From an uncultured Ignavibacteria bacterium (lineage in GTDB: Bacteria > Zixibacteria > MSB-5A5 > RBG-16-43-9), in contig CAZMZF010000011.1 of the NCBI GenBank assembly GCA_964570765.1, positions 3,629-67,628 on the forward strand: 64,000 nt of DNA, written 5' to 3'. Position numbers and translations under genes: made by a program. Positions 1,591-49,156 of the stretch are shown one piece after another. The notes under the pieces were generated by a model, which was not told the DNA's origin, did not search any database, and saw only the letters and a list, made by a program, of their open reading frames with translations. Position 1 is the stretch's first letter. Every line of letters starts with the position of its first letter.

Positions 1591-3240
1591 CTATAGGTCT
1601 TTTCTTCTTGCACGCCAGCGTTTTACTATTCGGCTCACATCCATGTCTTTAATACCTTTAGCCCAACACTCGGCAAACTTAACATCTGCGCTGTCAGGTT
1701 GAGGGTCAGGAAAATCTACTATAACCCTCGTAGGCATTACTACAGAATCCCCAACAATAAGAGCTTCCCCAGTTCTGAGCGACGGTACCATGTCCATAAG
1801 TCCGGCCAACGAATCGGGAACAAGACGACGAACATAATTCTGGTCGTCAGGATTGGTGAGACGCATCACAATAAAGGTGTTGCACTGTGAAATAACGGTT
1901 TCGGAAAGTTCTTTTGGCCGTTGGCTCACGACCATTATTCCAATTCCATATTTCCGTCCCTCTTTTGCGAGCCGCTCTACCGCTATTTTCGCTGCTGAAA
2001 ACTTAGCTTCTGGGCGGTTAGGAATGTAGTTGTGTGCCTCCTCAAATACCATCAAAATGGGAAATTGTTTCCTGTCTGGATTCCAAAAATTAAACTCATA
2101 AACGACACGAGAAATAACCGACGCTACCACACTGACAGCTTCGAAAGGAATACCACTTAGATCAATCACAGTCATTCTCTTTCCAGTATCAATAGAAAGG
2201 TATTCTTTAAGCAATTGAGGAAGACTGGCGTTCCCAGAGTATCGTTTAGGTGAGAACATAAATCGAAACCTGGGGTCATTGGTCTTACTGTCGAAACGAA
2301 TCAAAAACCGATCAAAAACTCCGTTGAGTGGCCCCTTCTTCTTTCCAGAAGACGTGCCAGGCACCATCTCTGTGTTCCAATCGCGGATTTGCTGGAGCAT
2401 CCCCTGAAGATCAAAGTAAATGGGTGAATCAACGGTAACTGCATTGCCAAGTCCAAGTTTTTCCTCCTTATCAGTATTCTGTCGAGCCTGTAGGAGCGCA
2501 TCTCGGAGACCAGTGATCTGGTTATGAGCAGTAAACTCAGTTATATCAACAGCTAGGTCTTGAAATTCTTCAAAGTTTAGTAGCCAATAGGGCAACTCCA
2601 CTTTGTCGGCTTCAATGAGTTGAGCGTGGTTAGGAAATGCGTTTGCATATTCTCCATGCAAATCTATCACGAGTATATGTGTATCTGGATATTTGTCAAT
2701 TGTGTGCTGGAGGATACTTGCCACCGTGCAAGATTTTCCGCATCCCGTCGTCCCGAGAATGGCTGTATGTCTACCGAAAAAGCGATCTACGTGTATGAAT
2801 GCCCGTTGGTCTTCCGCCTGAGCCAAACAGGCAAAAGAGAATCCCTGACTGACGAATTCTGAGAAGATTTCTTTAAGTTCATCTAAACCAACCATTTTTA
2901 CTTTTTGCCCGACGTTCGGGTATATGGCAACCCCACGACTAAATTGCCCATTGTGACTTAGAGTGCCTATGAGGAGACACTCAGCTACTTTCTTGCTAAT
3001 AGTCTCGCCGGCAGCTTCTTGGCCCGGTTTCATTGAAGGCGTAACATCAAGCATGCGAATGTTCGCCACTGTCCCAATGATATTAAGGTCTCGGAAAGGG
3101 ATTTTTACATGTGAGCCCGGCTGACCTGGATAATAGTCACCGTCTAGTGGAACTGTGGTGTCGACCGTCAATTCGACTATAACACGGTTTCCACTAACCT
3201 CAATGACATAGCCGATTTCTGTTTCTGGAGTCTTTGCCAT
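1591..3240 (-). CDS. HerA-like FtsK/HerA-family ATPase, partner of the SIR2 protein in a SIR2-HerA defense pair
   Basis: An N-terminal HAS-barrel-like region is followed by Walker A 'ILGTTGCGKS' and a C-terminal 'VVSQRPKELSETVISQCNTFIVMRL' motif. The likely start is the ATG at 3240, preceded by a GGGGAG RBS, rather than 3270. The upstream SIR2 gene ends in TAA only 2 nt before it, consistent with translational coupling. Confidence 0.8.
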   Translation of the reverse strand: MAKTPETEIGYVIEVSGNRVIVELTVDTTVPLDGDYYPGQPGSHVKIPFRDLNIIGTVANIRMLDVTPSMKPGQEAAGETISKKVAECLLIGTLSHNGQFSRGVAIYPNVGQKVKMVGLDELKEIFSEFVSQGFSFACLAQAEDQRAFIHVDRFFGRHTAILGTTGCGKSCTVASILQHTIDKYPDTHILVIDLHGEYANAFPNHAQLIEADKVELPYWLLNFEEFQDLAVDITEFTAHNQITGLRDALLQARQNTDKEEKLGLGNAVTVDSPIYFDLQGMLQQIRDWNTEMVPGTSSGKKKGPLNGVFDRFLIRFDSKTNDPRFRFMFSPKRYSGNASLPQLLKEYLSIDTGKRMTVIDLSGIPFEAVSVVASVISRVVYEFNFWNPDRKQFPILMVFEEAHNYIPNRPEAKFSAAKIAVERLAKEGRKYGIGIMVVSQRPKELSETVISQCNTFIVMRLTNPDDQNYVRRLVPDSLAGLMDMVPSLRTGEALIVGDSVVMPTRVIVDFPDPQPDSADVKFAECWAKGIKDMDVSRIVKRWRARRKDL

Positions 3241-4782: not shown

Positions 4783-4937
4783 TTCGTATTCCAGCCTTGC
4801 CCACTCCTAATTTGGACCACATGAAAGGCGGGATACGACTATTTTTATTGACTTCTCTTTCCTTGAGATTTAATTTAACTTTTTGATGGAATATTTATTA
4901 AGTCATTAGGATTTGATCTTTCAGACTGGAGGTTTCT

Positions 4938-6596
4938 ATGGAATATAGACCGATAAAAGCGCCGCGTGGAACAACTTTATCTTGCAAGGGTTGGCATCAG
5001 GAGGCGGCTTTAAGGATGCTTCAGAATAATTTGGATGAAGAGGTGGCGGAAAACCCTCAAGAGCTTATCATCTATGGGGGGAGTGGCAAAGCGGCGCGAA
5101 ACTGGGAGTGTTACTATGCTATTGTTGAGGCTTTGAAAAATTTAGAGAATGATGAGACCCTTTTGGTCCAGTCCGGCAAGCCGGTTGGGATCTTTAAGAC
5201 CCATTCCTATGCCCCCAGAGTATTAATCTCAAATTCGATGATGGTTCCTGCCTGGGCTAACTGGGAGAAGTTCCGGGAGCTTGAAAGATTGGGCTTGATT
5301 ATGTTCGGGCAGATGACTGCTGGCTCCTGGATTTATATAGGGACCCAGGGAATTTTGCAGGGGACTTATGAGACCTTTGCCTCAGTGGCAAAAAAACATT
5401 TTACCGGAGACCTGAAAGGGAAATTTGTTCTAACTGGTGGAATGGGTGGTATGGGTGGAGCTCAACCTTTAGCAGTAACGATGAATGGCGGTGCAGTTCT
5501 TTGTGTAGAGGTGGATAAGAAAAGAATAGAAAGGAGACTTTCCAAAGGTTATTGCGATAAAATGGTGGAAAGCTTGGATGAGGCTCTTGATATTGTTTTA
5601 AAAGCTAAAAATAAAGGAAAAGCTATTTCCGTGGGGTTAGTGGCTAATTGTGCAGATACTCATCCAGAGATCTTAAAAAGAGGGATAATCCCGGATATCG
5701 TAACTGACCAGACCAGTGCGCATGATGAGTTAAATGGTTATGTCCCTGCAGGGATACCCTATGAAGAAGCTTTAAGATTGAGAAAGGAAAATCCAGAAGA
5801 GTATATCAAAAGGTCGATGGAATCTATTGCTAAACATGTTGAATCGATGTTAGGATTTTTAAAAGCTGGCTCAATAGTATTTGATTACGGAAATAATATA
5901 AGGGGTCAGGCAAAAAAGGCTGGAATAGAAAATGCTTTTGATTTCCCTGGATTTGTTGTCGCATATATCAGACCTCTATTCTGTCTGGGCAAGGGTCCTT
6001 TTAGATGGGCGGCTTTGTCTGGAGATCCTGAGGATATAAAGATTACTGACAAAATAGTATTAAGGGAATTCAAAGAAGATGAGCCTTTGTGCAGATGGAT
6101 AAAATTGGCTTCCAAAAAAGTCCAGTTCCAGGGCTTGCCTGCAAGAATCTGCTGGCTGGGTTATGGTGAAAGAGCTCATTTTGGAGATATTATTAACAGA
6201 TTGGTCAAAAGAGGAAGGATAAAAGCTCCGGTGGTTATCGGCAGAGACCATCTGGATTGCGGGTCTGTAGCTTCACCCTACAGGGAAACCGAAGGGATGA
6301 AAGATGGCTCAGATGCAATTGCAGACTGGCCTATCTTAAACGGACTTTTAAATGCGGTTTCAGGTGCCTCCTGGGTCTCAGTTCACCACGGAGGAGGAGT
6401 AGGAATCGGGAACTCGATTCATGCCGGGATGGTGATAGTGGCAGATGGCTCAAAGGAGATGAAGTTGAGATTAGAAAGAGTTTTAACCAATGATCCGGGC
6501 ACAGGAGTTGCAAGGCACGCGGATGCTGGATATGAAGAAGCAATTAAAGTGGCAAAAGAAAAAGGGATAAAGATACCAATGATGAAAGAAAAGTAA
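4938..6596 (+). CDS. hutU: Urocanate hydratase
   Basis: Full-length urocanase-like translation (552 aa) with a GGAGG RBS 7 nt upstream. Confidence 0.93.
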
Positions 6597-45875: not shown

Positions 45876-46418
45876 TTGATGTTAAAAAAAGTGATATGTC
45901 TTTTCGGGTTTTTGCTTTTAGTGTCAGTTCCTTTATCTAAAGCACTTCTAGCTCAGCAACCCAAGATTGGTTATGTGGATGTGGAAAGGCTTAAAGTAGA
46001 ATATAAGGAGTTTCAGGATGCTCAGGAGAGGTTCAACCGGCAATTAGCTATATGGCAGAGCCAGGCGGATACTATGCAAAAAGAGGTTGCGGTTTTGCAG
46101 GATGAGTTAGAAAGACAGGGTTCACTTTTGACTGAAGCCAAGAGAAAAGAAAAACAACAGCAGATTATAGCCAAACAAAAGCAATATCAGGAGTTCGCTA
46201 CCAAGATATTAGGACCTGAAGGTGAAGCCGCCAGAAGGGAAAGGGAGCTTTCCAAACCCCTTATAGATAAGATCAATGCGGTTATCCAGTTAGTGGCAAT
46301 CCGAGATGGCTATTCCTTGATTTTAGATTCATCTGGAGGTAATGTGCTCTATGCTAAAGAGGATATGGATTTGACTGCGGTAATTTTAGAAGAATTGAAT
46401 AAAAGCAAGACCAAATAA
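45876..46418 (+). CDS. skp: OmpH/Skp-family periplasmic chaperone
   Basis: A signal peptide followed by a coiled-coil Q/E/K-rich body, as in Skp. Confidence 0.7.
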   Translation: MMLKKVICLFGFLLLVSVPLSKALLAQQPKIGYVDVERLKVEYKEFQDAQERFNRQLAIWQSQADTMQKEVAVLQDELERQGSLLTEAKRKEKQQQIIAKQKQYQEFATKILGPEGEAARRERELSKPLIDKINAVIQLVAIRDGYSLILDSSGGNVLYAKEDMDLTAVILEELNKSKTK

Positions 46419-46602
46419 ATGTTTTTTGTTCCGTCAGATTTTGAACCTGATAAGAGATCAAAAAGTTCGCTTTTTCAACCAATGACAAGGTTATATTGTG
46501 GTATAATCTTCTAAACGCATATAGATCAATGAACTTTATTCTTCAGAGTGTAGTTGGAGTTAGCATATATATTGTCGATACTGAAAATAAAGAAGGATAA
46601 TC

Positions 46603-46629
46603 TTGACAAATTGTTTTTTTACATATAAT
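46603..46629 (+). promoter_or_regulatory. Candidate sigma70 promoter (TTGACA-N15-TATAAT) in the AT-rich leader of the three-gene island
   Basis: 'ttgaca' at 46603-46608 and 'tataat' at 46624-46629, about 130 nt upstream of the ATG at 46757. Confidence 0.4.
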
Positions 46630-46756
46630 TTAGATAAGTTGCTGAGACTAATATTTTATTAAATATTATTATTACTGATTAGTATACATTTTAGCGAAGA
46701 ATAGCTGAATTTGAAAAGTTGATTCAGATCAAACCAGTTGAAATGACTCACTTTTA

Positions 46757-47491
46757 TTGGCACACTTAAAAAAGATACCACTAATGGAGCCCAAACAAGA
46801 AATATACCCCAACTCTCCTCTTGTGGAGGTAGTATTTGAAATTCGCTTCTCTGGGGAACCAATGATTGAATGCCGAAGACATGAACTTTATGCTAGTGTC
46901 AGAAATAACTACCCAAAGGTTCTTGTCCCTCAAGTTCAAGCAGAAGGTTTCCCCGCTTTGGCACCGTATCGATTCGAAAGATCTGATGGTGCTGCCGGTA
47001 TAATGCTTGCTATAGATAAATTTAGTTACTATGCCCGTAAATATCCTGGATACATTGAATTTAAAAGAGAATTCTTAGAACTGGCATCAATATTTAACAT
47101 CCTATTTCCTTTAGAAAAATTGAAACGAGTGGGGTGGCGATATGTCAATGTTATCCCTTTTACCAGAGAAAGTGGAAGTATTCCATTAAAGAGATTTCTC
47201 AATTTTGGTCTATATTTGGGAAAAGAGACTTCAGACAAATACGAAAACCTCAGTGTCACGCTAATATCAAAAACAAATGATTGTTCAATTACTACCAGAC
47301 TTGAATCTATGATATCATCTGATACTAGCCGGGAAGCTTTATTACTTGATTTCGATTGTGCTAAAGAAAAAGAGCTTTCGTTTTCCAAAACAGAAACGTA
47401 CATAGAGGAGACCCATCAAGTGGCCAGAAATTTGTTTGAAGAGCTAATCACTGATAATTATAGAAAATATCTCAGAGATGAGGTAATATGA
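46757..47491 (+). CDS. Uncharacterised protein, TIGR04255-like by its N-terminal motif
   Basis: 'YPNSPLVEVVFEIRF' near the N-terminus matches my recollection of the TIGR04255 family start. 244 aa, encoded in a low-GC region. Confidence 0.45.
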   Translation: MAHLKKIPLMEPKQEIYPNSPLVEVVFEIRFSGEPMIECRRHELYASVRNNYPKVLVPQVQAEGFPALAPYRFERSDGAAGIMLAIDKFSYYARKYPGYIEFKREFLELASIFNILFPLEKLKRVGWRYVNVIPFTRESGSIPLKRFLNFGLYLGKETSDKYENLSVTLISKTNDCSITTRLESMISSDTSREALLLDFDCAKEKELSFSKTETYIEETHQVARNLFEELITDNYRKYLRDEVI

Positions 47492-47916
47492 ATACTTCAA
47501 CTATAAATGAAAGCTATGAAGAGATAAAAAGAAGACAAAAATATTTTCCAGAATATTTGGATATGAAGAGTTCCCTTATTGGAAAAGACATTGGTGTCTC
47601 TTTGGAGGAACGTTTCAGACGAGATCAAGAAATTTTTAAAGACGCCCCTCTATGGGCTGTGCACACCGAAGTAAAAAAATTTAGAACATCAAAACCCATA
47701 AAGGTCCACATCTTCAAAGATGCTGACTTCTTTTTCGCAGAAAACGAAACCTTAATGGTTTATGGAAGTGGGGAATCTATCAGCGAAGCAGTTGAAGACC
47801 TAGGATTACACATCATCCACTTCTGGGAGTACTACAATAATTTATCTTGGGATCGTGTTATTGGAGAGGCAGAAAGACTTAAACATCTCTATGAGAATCT
47901 ATTGATTGAAGAATAA
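47488..47916 (+). CDS. Putative HicB-like antitoxin with an N-terminal extension
   Basis: 'LMVYGSGESISEAVEDLGLHIIHF' resembles the HicB 'G.T.eEA..nl.eai' region. Its start overlaps the previous stop (ATGA). Confidence 0.35.
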   Translation: MNTSTINESYEEIKRRQKYFPEYLDMKSSLIGKDIGVSLEERFRRDQEIFKDAPLWAVHTEVKKFRTSKPIKVHIFKDADFFFAENETLMVYGSGESISEAVEDLGLHIIHFWEYYNNLSWDRVIGEAERLKHLYENLLIEE

Positions 47917-47918
47917 TA

Positions 47919-48209
47919 ATGCAAATCGATAGAGACATTATCGAGTCCTCGCTGTCAAAGAAAGGATTTGTTCGAGAGGACTCACATCATAGATATTTTT
48001 ATCATGAGTATGAAGGTAAGAGAACTGGGCTTTACACTTACACATCTCACGGTAGTAAACACAAAACTTACCCTGAAGCTCTACTTAAACAAATGAAGAA
48101 ACAGCTTCGTTTAGACCGATTAAAACAAGTAGAGGAACTTTTTCTATGCCCGATAAATGGTGAGGGCTACAATCAAATTCTAAAGGAAAAGGGCTTCTTA
48201 ACCGAATAG
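47919..48209 (+). CDS. Putative HicA-family toxin (mRNA interferase)
   Basis: 'LSKKGFVREDSHHRYFYHE...GLYTYTSHGSKHKTYPEALLKQMKKQLRL' parallels the HicA consensus 'lkk.Gf..vrq.GSHh.f.h...g..vtvP.H..kel..gtl.sIlkqagl'. Confidence 0.5.
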   Translation: MQIDRDIIESSLSKKGFVREDSHHRYFYHEYEGKRTGLYTYTSHGSKHKTYPEALLKQMKKQLRLDRLKQVEELFLCPINGEGYNQILKEKGFLTE

Positions 48210-48298
48210 TGTCAAACAAAAACTTGGAAGTCTATAACCTTGCCTATTCCTCTTTTCTCCCTAACATTCTAAAGTCGAAAGATACATTAAAAAATCTA

Positions 48299-49156
48299 CT
48301 AATAATTAATCACCTGGTCGATCTTCCCCTTTTTCCGGGCAACATATTCGATCGATTTGTAGATATAATCGGAGAACAGGGCTAATAGAACTGTTGTTCC
48401 AAGCATAATCAGAAGGAGCTGGAAATCAGAATATTTAGCCAGTGTATTGCTTAAGCTTTTACCCAGAATAGATCTTCTCAGAAGCTCTAACCAGTAAGTT
48501 AAAGGTAAAGCCTTGGAGATATATTGTAGCCAATTAGGTAACAAGTCAATCTGGAAGATCGCTCCACAGGCTAAATAGAATATCCCTCCTAAGCCCTCGG
48601 TCAAAGCAAAACTGTGATGAGCAGTTAGCATAGTTATCCCGGCTAAGAGGATTCCAAGACAGGTTATCACAAATAGTCCTACTATAAAGGTGATAAAGAA
48701 TAGTGGATAATTTACCTTTAACAAATCGATAGGTATCTTCAAGACAATCATACCGAAGGCTAAAGTGATTATAATCGCAATGGTAGTGGTAATAAGTTTG
48801 GCTATCCCTCTGCCAAAAAGATAATAATACATCCTGATCGGGGCGATATAGATGTATCTCAACATCTCATAATGCTCCCGGTCTTCGTGAATCACCCAGG
48901 AGATACCGAATAAAACGTTATAGACATACATAAAGAATGTATTCCCCAGAAATATGTAGGCGAAAAGGTCAAATGAGGTCTTCCCCCGGGTAACCACTAA
49001 ATACATAAAGACCAGAATCAAAGATGAGGCAATAGGACGGATTATAGAATAGATTGCAAACAAAAATGGGTCTGCCCAATTTGCCTCCATTGCCCACCCT
49101 AATTTGCCAGCTAATCGGGTGGTTCTTAAATTATCTTTTAATTTCTGCACGAACAT
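48299..49156 (-). CDS. ABC-2-type transporter permease
   Basis: A 6-TM ABC-2 permease pattern. Confidence 0.7.
   Translation of the reverse strand: MFVQKLKDNLRTTRLAGKLGWAMEANWADPFLFAIYSIIRPIASSLILVFMYLVVTRGKTSFDLFAYIFLGNTFFMYVYNVLFGISWVIHEDREHYEMLRYIYIAPIRMYYYLFGRGIAKLITTTIAIIITLAFGMIVLKIPIDLLKVNYPLFFITFIVGLFVITCLGILLAGITMLTAHHSFALTEGLGGIFYLACGAIFQIDLLPNWLQYISKALPLTYWLELLRRSILGKSLSNTLAKYSDFQLLLIMLGTTVLLALFSDYIYKSIEYVARKKGKIDQVINY

Follow-up and report, generated by a model that had tools for sequence, protein, structure and literature searches.

Introduction

The toxin–antitoxin systems that come closest to the locus studied here are the HicAB modules (PF07927; structures 6hpb, 4c26/6g26 and 1whz). 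The locus itself is a cassette of three co-directional genes, here named A, B and C, in a stretch of 64,000 nucleotides from an uncultured Ignavibacteria bacterium (GenBank assembly GCA_964570765.1, contig CAZMZF010000011.1), which as a whole is referred to as the window and in which all positions below are counted. Our analysis suggests that this cassette, which carries no annotation, most likely belongs to a large HicA-like toxin–antitoxin branch that is coupled here to a subunit of the TIGR04255 family. Like HicAB, it is a compact mobile operon that encodes a small basic protein (C) with an alpha-beta-beta-beta-alpha fold resembling a double-stranded RNA-binding domain (dsRBD) and a conserved histidine at the beta1/beta2 junction, together with an acidic partner (B) that has a G.G.S/T..EA motif in a conserved core which may be of the beta-beta-beta-helix type. 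Unlike HicAB, however, protein C has 96 amino acids and carries a conserved extension of two helices, in which Cys77 is invariant, and its HicA score is sub-threshold. The antitoxin-like gene comes first of the pair and the toxin-like gene last, whereas canonical hicA precedes hicB. Protein B matches no HicB model, shows no DNA-binding domain and bears a 68-residue N-terminal extension, and the cassette contains a third conserved gene.

Tripartite systems built on HicAB have been described. The HicAB-SecB system of Methylomonas methanica is a tripartite toxin–antitoxin–chaperone (TAC) system whose function depends on an extension of the antitoxin that contains aromatic residues (PMC5105189), and the extension is also functional when it is grafted at the N-terminus (PMC5105189). 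The cassette resembles such systems in its three genes, its HicAB-type core and an extra antitoxin segment that could tie to the third protein. It differs from them in that the third protein belongs to TIGR04255, with repeats resembling the TATA-binding protein (TBP) and no likeness to SecB, and is encoded first instead of last, while the extension of B is N-terminal instead of C-terminal. With the omega-epsilon-zeta and PaaR2-PaaA2-ParE2 systems, the cassette shares the order of accessory protein, antitoxin and toxin, but protein A has 235 amino acids, is not basic and has no ribbon-helix-helix (RHH) or helix-turn-helix (HTH) domain, and the proteins are unrelated. The PHD_like family PF12910 (3k6q, about 139 amino acids) is similar to B in length (about 140 amino acids) and matches it weakly at colinear positions; B, however, scores 13-18 bits where 27 are needed, and the described partner toxin of PF12910 is RelE/ParE, not HicA-like. 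Other cassettes with a TIGR04255 gene also place that gene first, overlapping a middle gene that is followed by a third, and lie on mobile elements near integrases or insertion sequences (IS). All of them are uncharacterised, and their downstream pairs, in contrast, are unrelated to B and C. Neither TIGR04255 nor its InterPro names are mentioned in the searchable literature, which agrees with an earlier interpretation of the window from its letters alone (the sequence-only reading), according to which such a trio is not known to have been described.

Organisation of the cassette

As read from the list of open reading frames (ORFs) and the sequence itself, genes A, B and C lie on the plus strand between skp and an ABC-2 permease gene. 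The features of the region are as follows.

46431-48299, no strand assigned: window-specific inserted segment that holds the leader and genes A, B and C and is flanked by the convergent 3' ends of skp and of the ABC-2 permease gene
46431-46783, plus strand: AT-rich leader with a promoter-like site (composition; hexamers read in the sequence)
46784-47491, plus strand: gene A, TIGR04255-family protein of 235 amino acids, proposed input/control subunit (NCBIfam, homologue starts, AlphaFold2 model)
47488-47691, plus strand: gene B, N-terminal extension, residues 1-68, proposed A-docking region (family alignment)
47692-47916, plus strand: gene B, C-terminal domain, residues 69-142 and stop codon, proposed neutraliser of C (sub-threshold PF12910, 3k6q)
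47919-48110, plus strand: gene C, HicA-like core, residues 1-64, putative RNase toxin (AlphaFold2, Foldseek, sub-threshold Pfam)
48111-48209, plus strand: gene C, C-terminal extension with two helices, family-specific, and stop codon (AlphaFold2 model, conservation)
45876-46418, plus strand: skp, upstream neighbour of the leader
48299-49156, minus strand: ABC-2 permease gene, its 3' end convergent with that of skp

The complete genes span 46784-47491 (A), 47488-47916 (B) and 47919-48209 (C). Genes A and B overlap by ATGA and B is separated from C by 2 nt, which bears out the earlier claim of three tightly coupled genes, and the peptide strings quoted with that claim are all present. The first gene was also called correctly, but not its length of 244 amino acids: although gene A could start at TTG 46757, homologues and gene callers favour ATG 46784, which gives 235. 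The fall in guanine-plus-cytosine (GC) content at the cassette is real but modest. The trio has 36.8% GC against 40.4% for the window, which places it at the 10th percentile of equal-sized windows, and the region 46420-48300 has 34.9%, at the 2nd percentile. The 338-nt leader (46419-46756) is AT-rich as previously noted, with about 27.5% GC, while positions 47041-47100 have 26.7% and not the 32% given in the sequence-only reading.

The leader carries TTGACA (46603-46608) and TATAAT (46624-46629), which were read directly from the sequence and which we predict to form a promoter; a consensus promoter scan omitted this pair because its spacer is 15 nt. Within 46300-48450, neither terminators nor promoters were in excess of chance, no Rfam family was matched, and no target-site duplication or att-like flanking repeats, a feature to look for according to the sequence-only reading, rose above chance. 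Likewise, the leaders of 33 complete cassettes contained no conserved operator-like k-mer or upstream motif beyond shuffled controls. A 58-aa ORF that starts at the stop codon of C (48209-48385, plus strand) was considered as a further gene and is probably spurious, since it extends beyond the inserted segment into the conserved 3' end of the ABC-2 gene, which is encoded on the other strand.

Conservation of the three genes as a unit

The C family, used as the query against GTDB with each species represented by one genome, yielded 44 loci. Their labels belong to some 14 phyla: Sumerlaeota, Clostridia, Omnitrophota, Thermodesulfobacteriota, Planctomycetota, Aminicenantes/Acidobacteria, Atribacterota, Gemmatimonadota, Nitrospirota, Bacteroidota, Calditrichota, Elusimicrobiota, Actinomycetota and 'delta proteobacteria'. 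Purpose-built hidden Markov models (HMMs) found A, B and C colinear in 36 of these 44 species genomes, and the same trio appears in separate gene calls of loci L005, L009, L011 and L013-16. The spacing between A and B is -4 or -1 in all 33 complete cassettes, and that between B and C ranges from -14 to +6 in 32 of them; the outlier, at +95, is L057, whose C gene is frameshifted. The three genes agree in their pairwise distances, with correlations of rho 0.55-0.75 and the tightest between A and B (0.75). The ratio of nonsynonymous to synonymous substitution rates (dN/dS) is about 0.15 for A, 0.20 for B and 0.13 for C. The putative toxin is better conserved than the putative antitoxin. These comparisons indicate that the trio is a conserved, co-inherited unit, that selection on each of its genes is purifying and that the arrangement goes far beyond what chance would produce. 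As a side observation, loci L047, L049 and L054 (cassettes at about 4870-6320) have nearly identical A genes (synonymous divergence, dS, of 0.14-0.15), while dS reaches 0.4-1.6 in B and about 0.7 in C, a mosaic that suggests recombination swapping the B-C part.

Acquisition and genomic context

Close relatives of the host, whose ABC-2 proteins are 92-98% identical to that of the window, keep the order methyltransferase, ABC-2, skp, TrkA, and in all ten of them A, B and C are missing at the skp/ABC-2 site. In the closest one (L066), ABC-2 is 98%, skp 94% and TrkA 99% identical, and homology breaks off at 46430 and restarts at 48300, which delimits the window-specific segment. The absence of the trio from ten close relatives that keep the adjacency of skp and ABC-2 therefore shows that it was acquired. 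Moreover, cassette GC is below that of the host flanks in 26 of 26 loci, by 8 points on average and by 27 at most. We conclude from these comparisons that the cassette is horizontally acquired and mobile.

The earlier suggestion of a mobile or defence-island origin is accordingly supported in its first half only. At 40 loci, the nearest 126 flanking ORFs represent 122 different Pfam families, mostly housekeeping ones, with few SLFN/AlbA_2, HEPN/NTase and IS200 genes. In the window, too, the cassette is flanked by housekeeping genes, and with such flanks a place in a defence island is not supported.

The insertion site has features of its own. The skp/ABC-2 spacer is 150-190 nt in four of the ten relatives, and in the other six the site holds unrelated cargo of 1-4.7 kb, which includes FG-GAP/dockerin-like secreted repeat proteins, a membrane protein and a cupin-like protein. 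This intergenic site (46419-48299 in the window; loci L066-L086) is a cargo hotspot in the lineage. The empty site of L066 (about 2908-3096) contains repeated GC-rich hairpin units, TTTGTAGGGGA...TCCC, that resemble repetitive extragenic palindromes and are absent from the window.

Protein A

Protein A reaches 101.2 bits on NCBIfam TIGR04255, for which the curated cutoff is 30, and the match (E 7.9e-29) covers profile positions 2-249 of 252. It is thus an unambiguous member, as the sequence-only reading had recognised. The names given to its homologues by JGI and NCBI agree on TIGR04255. No Pfam family was matched; a match was obtained to phrog_5464, which has no assigned function. The AlphaFold2 model is confident (predicted local distance difference test, pLDDT, 90.5; predicted template-modelling score, pTM, 0.87) and consists of two tandem TBP-like beta-alpha-beta4-alpha repeats. 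Foldseek matches it to S-adenosylmethionine decarboxylase (AdoMetDC)/prozyme and to TBPs with a probability of 0.9-1.0, but with template-modelling (TM) scores of only 0.24-0.38. A search of a viral structure library gave the same kind of outcome, and a sequence-profile search of the PDB found no significant relative. These structural matches are topological only, so the fold does not point to a function.

The invariant residues of A include E15, E19, R115, R119, D189 and D191, which cluster on strands, and its R.G.RY and D.D motifs are retained in TIGR04255 proteins of only 22-32% identity. The isoelectric point (pI) of the family is near neutral to slightly acidic (median 6.4; 5.7 for the window protein). 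Two candidate assignments were rejected. A PD-(D/E)xK nuclease, suggested by D189-x-D191-x-x-K, does not fit since the lysine is missing in distant TIGR04255 members. A SecB-like protein does not fit either, given the TBP-like double repeat, the lack of any SecB Pfam match and the absence of SecB from the top 50 Foldseek PDB matches.

Protein C

The AlphaFold2 model of protein C (pLDDT 88.8) shows helix 5-14, strands 17-21, 25-31 and 34-42, and helix 53-62, that is, alpha1-beta1-beta2-beta3-alpha2, followed by a C-terminal extension of about 30 residues with helices at 68-76 and 81-90. Its top Foldseek match in the PDB is 1whz, a HicA-type protein of Thermus (probability 0.99, TM score on the target 0.72, root-mean-square deviation, rmsd, 2.7), and the search also finds Burkholderia pseudomallei HicA (6g26_F and 4c26; TM score on the target 0.50). 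In Pfam, the HicA_toxin family PF07927 is matched with E 0.0038 and 17.8 bits over profile positions 6-57 of 58. HicA_toxin is also the only recurrent Pfam match among the relatives of C, found in 10 of 28 close and 18 of 61 distant ones with a best E of 1.4e-5, while alignment of the family by hhalign with the single E. coli HicA was uninformative. His24 (codon 47988-47990) lies at the beta1/beta2 junction and is invariant in all 28 close and 61 distant relatives; from its position in the predicted fold it may be equivalent to the catalytic histidine of HicA. Lys15 and Cys77 are likewise invariant across the wide family, and in the extension Pro78 and Tyr84 are conserved in addition to Cys77. 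The protein is basic, with a pI of 9.0 (family median 9.4). These data, of which the structural ones come from a model, indicate that C is HicA-like at the level of the fold. The claim of the sequence-only reading that the last protein is HicA-like thus stands for the fold and its invariant histidine, and fails for the Pfam HicA threshold.

A profile search of 1.84 billion representatives (E up to 1e-3) found 1323 clusters at 50% identity. The best 150 of these 1323 are mostly about 95 amino acids long, and nearly all are matched over almost the entire profile, the extension included. Wherever a source names them, they are called 'hypothetical protein'. Some homologues add a C-terminal tail rich in Arg and Lys, e.g. 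RKKGKRRRRS (P0093; P0099, L011:6001-6363; P0353). In PADLOC-DB v2.0.0, C matches only HEPN_IX (E 0.0025, 15.9 bits). A HEPN assignment was rejected: the matched region is a beta-strand in the confident model, and the R-x3-H spacing does not fit R-x4-6-H.

Protein B

The two halves of B are conserved to a different degree, with a mean pairwise identity of 22% in the N-terminal half versus 45% in the C-terminal half. The C-terminal 75 residues or so follow the pattern FFAENE..L.V.G.G.S..EA..D...HI.HF..YY...L.....G.A.RLK.LY., while the N-terminal 68 residues vary except for the short motifs Y..I.ER..Y.PENY and P-L/I-W. In 9 of 25 members, the C-terminal half gives a sub-threshold match to PF12910, the family of PHD_like antitoxins (13-18 bits versus 27), and the family consensus does so with E 0.003 and 18 bits, also below the 27 needed. 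This weak match is colinear (B residues 74-116 with profile positions 63-103 of 141), and a plausible alignment, with E 0.19, was obtained with PDB 3k6q, a relative of PF12910. HicB-type models gave no match with E of 1 or lower, either to the window protein or to any of 25 relatives. In an hhalign comparison with the single E. coli HicB, the expected helix (G.G.S..EA...) was aligned, but not significantly (P 0.03, probability 1.6%). The window protein is acidic, with a pI of 5.2. Protein B thus appears weakly antitoxin-like; the HicB-like character proposed in the sequence-only reading is poorly supported, because no HicB model matches and only PF12910 and 3k6q give a faint signal.

Modularity of the cassette

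Four decayed copies (L027, L028, L029 and L043) have repeatedly lost A together with the N-terminal part of B. In L043, A(1-20) is fused in frame to B(68-142), and C follows; in L028, A(1-33) is joined to B(70-142), for which a separate ATG is present, and C again follows. In L027 (5745-6285) and L029 (807-1194), an intact C lies beside the last 40 or so codons of B, which have neither a frame nor a start. The same part of B is kept at a greater distance, where in the examples examined the gene preceding a C-like gene always ends in a domain like the C-terminal domain of B, whereas its front differs. Locus L063 has genes of 113, 152 and 98 aa, and L064 is similar. The 10-kb Geminocystis plasmid pGM3709_06 (L097/L099) has genes of 358 and 96 aa (B HMM E 5e-12), and Methanocaldococcus fervens tailed virus 1 (MFTV1; L098:1492-2785) has genes of 345 and 108 aa (E 2e-14), the B-like part making up the last 90 or so residues of the partner in both. 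One protein, P0328, is a single polypeptide in which a B-like and a C-like part are fused. The reduced copies and the distant pairs therefore show that the C-terminal domain of B plus C is the constant core, to which A and the N-terminal extension of B form one of several alternative front ends.

Discussion

We propose that the trio is a horizontally mobile toxin–antitoxin module of a type II-like kind with an added control subunit, protein A, a reading that we consider moderately probable. Its toxin–antitoxin character is suggested by the pairing of a basic C with an acidic B, by the HicA-like fold of C with its invariant histidine and by the weak PHD_like match of the C-terminal domain of B. 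Also in favour of the proposal are the conservation of the trio as a unit, its mobility, the core retained in reduced and distant copies, and the recurrence of TIGR04255 as the first gene of other overlapping three-gene operons on plasmids and P2-like phages. Transcription would start in the AT-rich leader of the operon, whose genes are translationally coupled. Protein C would be a basic HicA-like toxin of the RNase type, with a dsRBD-like fold and His24 as an invariant residue, and the acidic C-terminal domain of B would bind, sequester and neutralise it. Protein A, with its two TBP-like repeats and a conserved polar patch, would act through the N-terminal extension of B to set whether C stays silenced, and it may either stabilise B or sense a trigger, for which infection and stress are examples. 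A trigger, or the loss of A or B, would then free C, and the purpose of the module could be addiction or abortive infection, with a possible link to phage defence.

Several results weigh against this proposal. Protein C misses the PF07927 gathering threshold (17.8 versus 27 bits), its Foldseek E-values are weak (0.06-1.8, best 0.06), and a PDB sequence-profile search with C found no HicA. Protein B has no significant family match, including in the PDB sequence-profile search, and the fold of A (best TM score 0.38) yields no function. No DNA-binding domain that could serve autoregulation was found in A, B or C. As for defence, there was no enrichment of defence genes near cassettes at the 40 loci, PADLOC-DB v2.0.0 has no match for A or B, and the clade is absent from the IMG/VR viral contigs scanned with the C family. 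Finally, an intact C beside a destroyed B in L027 and L029 is awkward for a constitutively toxic C, although these copies may be silent or recent.

Part of this evidence can be explained in other ways. In a TAC-like system, A would sense nothing and would be a dedicated chaperone or stabiliser of the N-terminal extension of B, needed for the silencing of C. Tripartite HicAB-SecB systems with an aromatic antitoxin extension do exist (PMC5105189), and the extension of B (about 68 aa) has aromatic motifs that are conserved (PENY, P-L/I-W). In addition, all 33 complete cassettes couple the translation of A and B, and the distances of these two genes are the most tightly correlated. We nevertheless judge this explanation unlikely: A is not SecB-like by Pfam, fold or Foldseek, its invariant charged residues resemble a ligand or catalytic site more than a chaperone surface, and the copies that lack A and the N-terminal extension (L028, L043) appear viable. 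A different role for A comes to mind because B lacks the DNA-binding domain that is normal in HicB. Protein A might then be a transcriptional regulator that places a TBP-like saddle on an operator, as in omega-epsilon-zeta or PaaR-PaaA-ParE. Omega is the first gene of its operon, as A is here, the TBP-like topology is found with a Foldseek probability of 0.9-0.99, and no RHH or HTH Pfam domain was detected in B or its 25 relatives. However, TBPs are basic whereas A is not, its TM scores to TBP are only 0.24-0.38 at an rmsd above 10 Å, the 33 leaders share no upstream motif above shuffled controls, and the second gene of other TIGR04255 cassettes already has an HTH, so that a regulator seems very improbable.

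It could also be asked whether there is a toxin at all. The cassette might encode a non-toxic complex for RNA binding or processing, or an enzyme A with two small partners, and be mobile by happenstance. Such a complex would be in keeping with the orphan C genes of L027 and L029, with the fact that B and C fall under all curated HMM thresholds, with a charged patch of A that is compatible with catalysis and with the window's lack of neighbouring genes for defence or toxin–antitoxin functions. On the other hand, the cassette behaves as a selfish module, being patchily distributed over about 14 phyla, always lower in GC than its host and inserted between housekeeping genes. The basic/acidic pairing of C and B, the invariant histidine in a HicA-type fold and the decay that repeatedly retains the C-terminal domain of B together with C also speak against it, and we give this explanation only a small probability. 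That the genes are adjacent by chance, or are spurious ORFs in an AT-rich spacer, has a practically negligible probability; low GC content alone would favour it, A and C have hundreds of homologues, and it is refuted by the conserved gene order and by dN/dS values of 0.13-0.20.

The proposed toxin–antitoxin module has some wider implications. The cassette provides a first functional context for the curated family TIGR04255 and defines a large, unannotated HicA-like branch of 1323 representative clusters. It also suggests an architectural rule, in which a neutraliser domain plus a toxin is the output that stays constant, while different front ends can take each other's place: TIGR04255 as a subunit of its own, other small proteins, or domains of 260 aa in fusion. 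If A is a sensor of a trigger, these 1.45 kb would amount to a compact switch that works independently of phylum, with relevance to phage defence, plasmid addiction and synthetic kill-switches, and the activation of a toxin–antitoxin system would become a directly testable question.

A bolder reading would extend this rule beyond the window. TIGR04255 proteins may be widespread input subunits, for sensing or control, that sit on interchangeable two-gene outputs and form a new tripartite family for abortive infection or addiction, and at the same time the HicA-like proteins of about 95 aa with their B-type partners may be a new major branch of HicAB that recruits diverse sensor domains. The two parts taken jointly are a tentative possibility that we regard as rather unlikely. 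Three output modules were seen that bear on it: the B/C pair, a pair of an HTH and a 'TQxCD' protein, and a pair shared by a Rhizobium plasmid and Burkholderia prophages. TIGR04255 heads at least two other overlapping three-gene cassettes on plasmids and phages. In the second cassette type, the TIGR04255 gene is followed by genes for an Xre-like HTH protein, which has an N-terminal extension of about 70 aa, and for a protein of 270-330 aa with an invariant TQ(T/S)CD motif, for which a PDB search found no relative. It lies on plasmids of four phyla (Chroococcidiopsis, Rhizobium etli, Acinetobacter baumannii and Paenarthrobacter), three of which are typed as conjugative and the one of A. baumannii as non-mobilizable, and all three genes are mutually homologous between these plasmids. 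The third type is common to a plasmid of Rhizobium sp. CB3060 and to P2-like phages of Burkholderia. The positions of both types are as follows.

Second cassette type: L093:3477-5786; L095:3474-5752; L096:3474-5650; L094:3495-5866
Third cassette type: L061:4971-7144; L062:4971-7001

On the Rhizobium plasmid, the neighbours of the third type are IS elements and a multiubiquitin/ThiF/DUF6527 gene cluster. In the phages, the cassette occupies an accessory region that separates the integrase gene from the portal gene, and a toxin/antidote pair lies next to it. Plasmid and phage versions have homologous third genes (E 7e-18), which match phrog_11836 and carry a GLTC(A/S)T motif.

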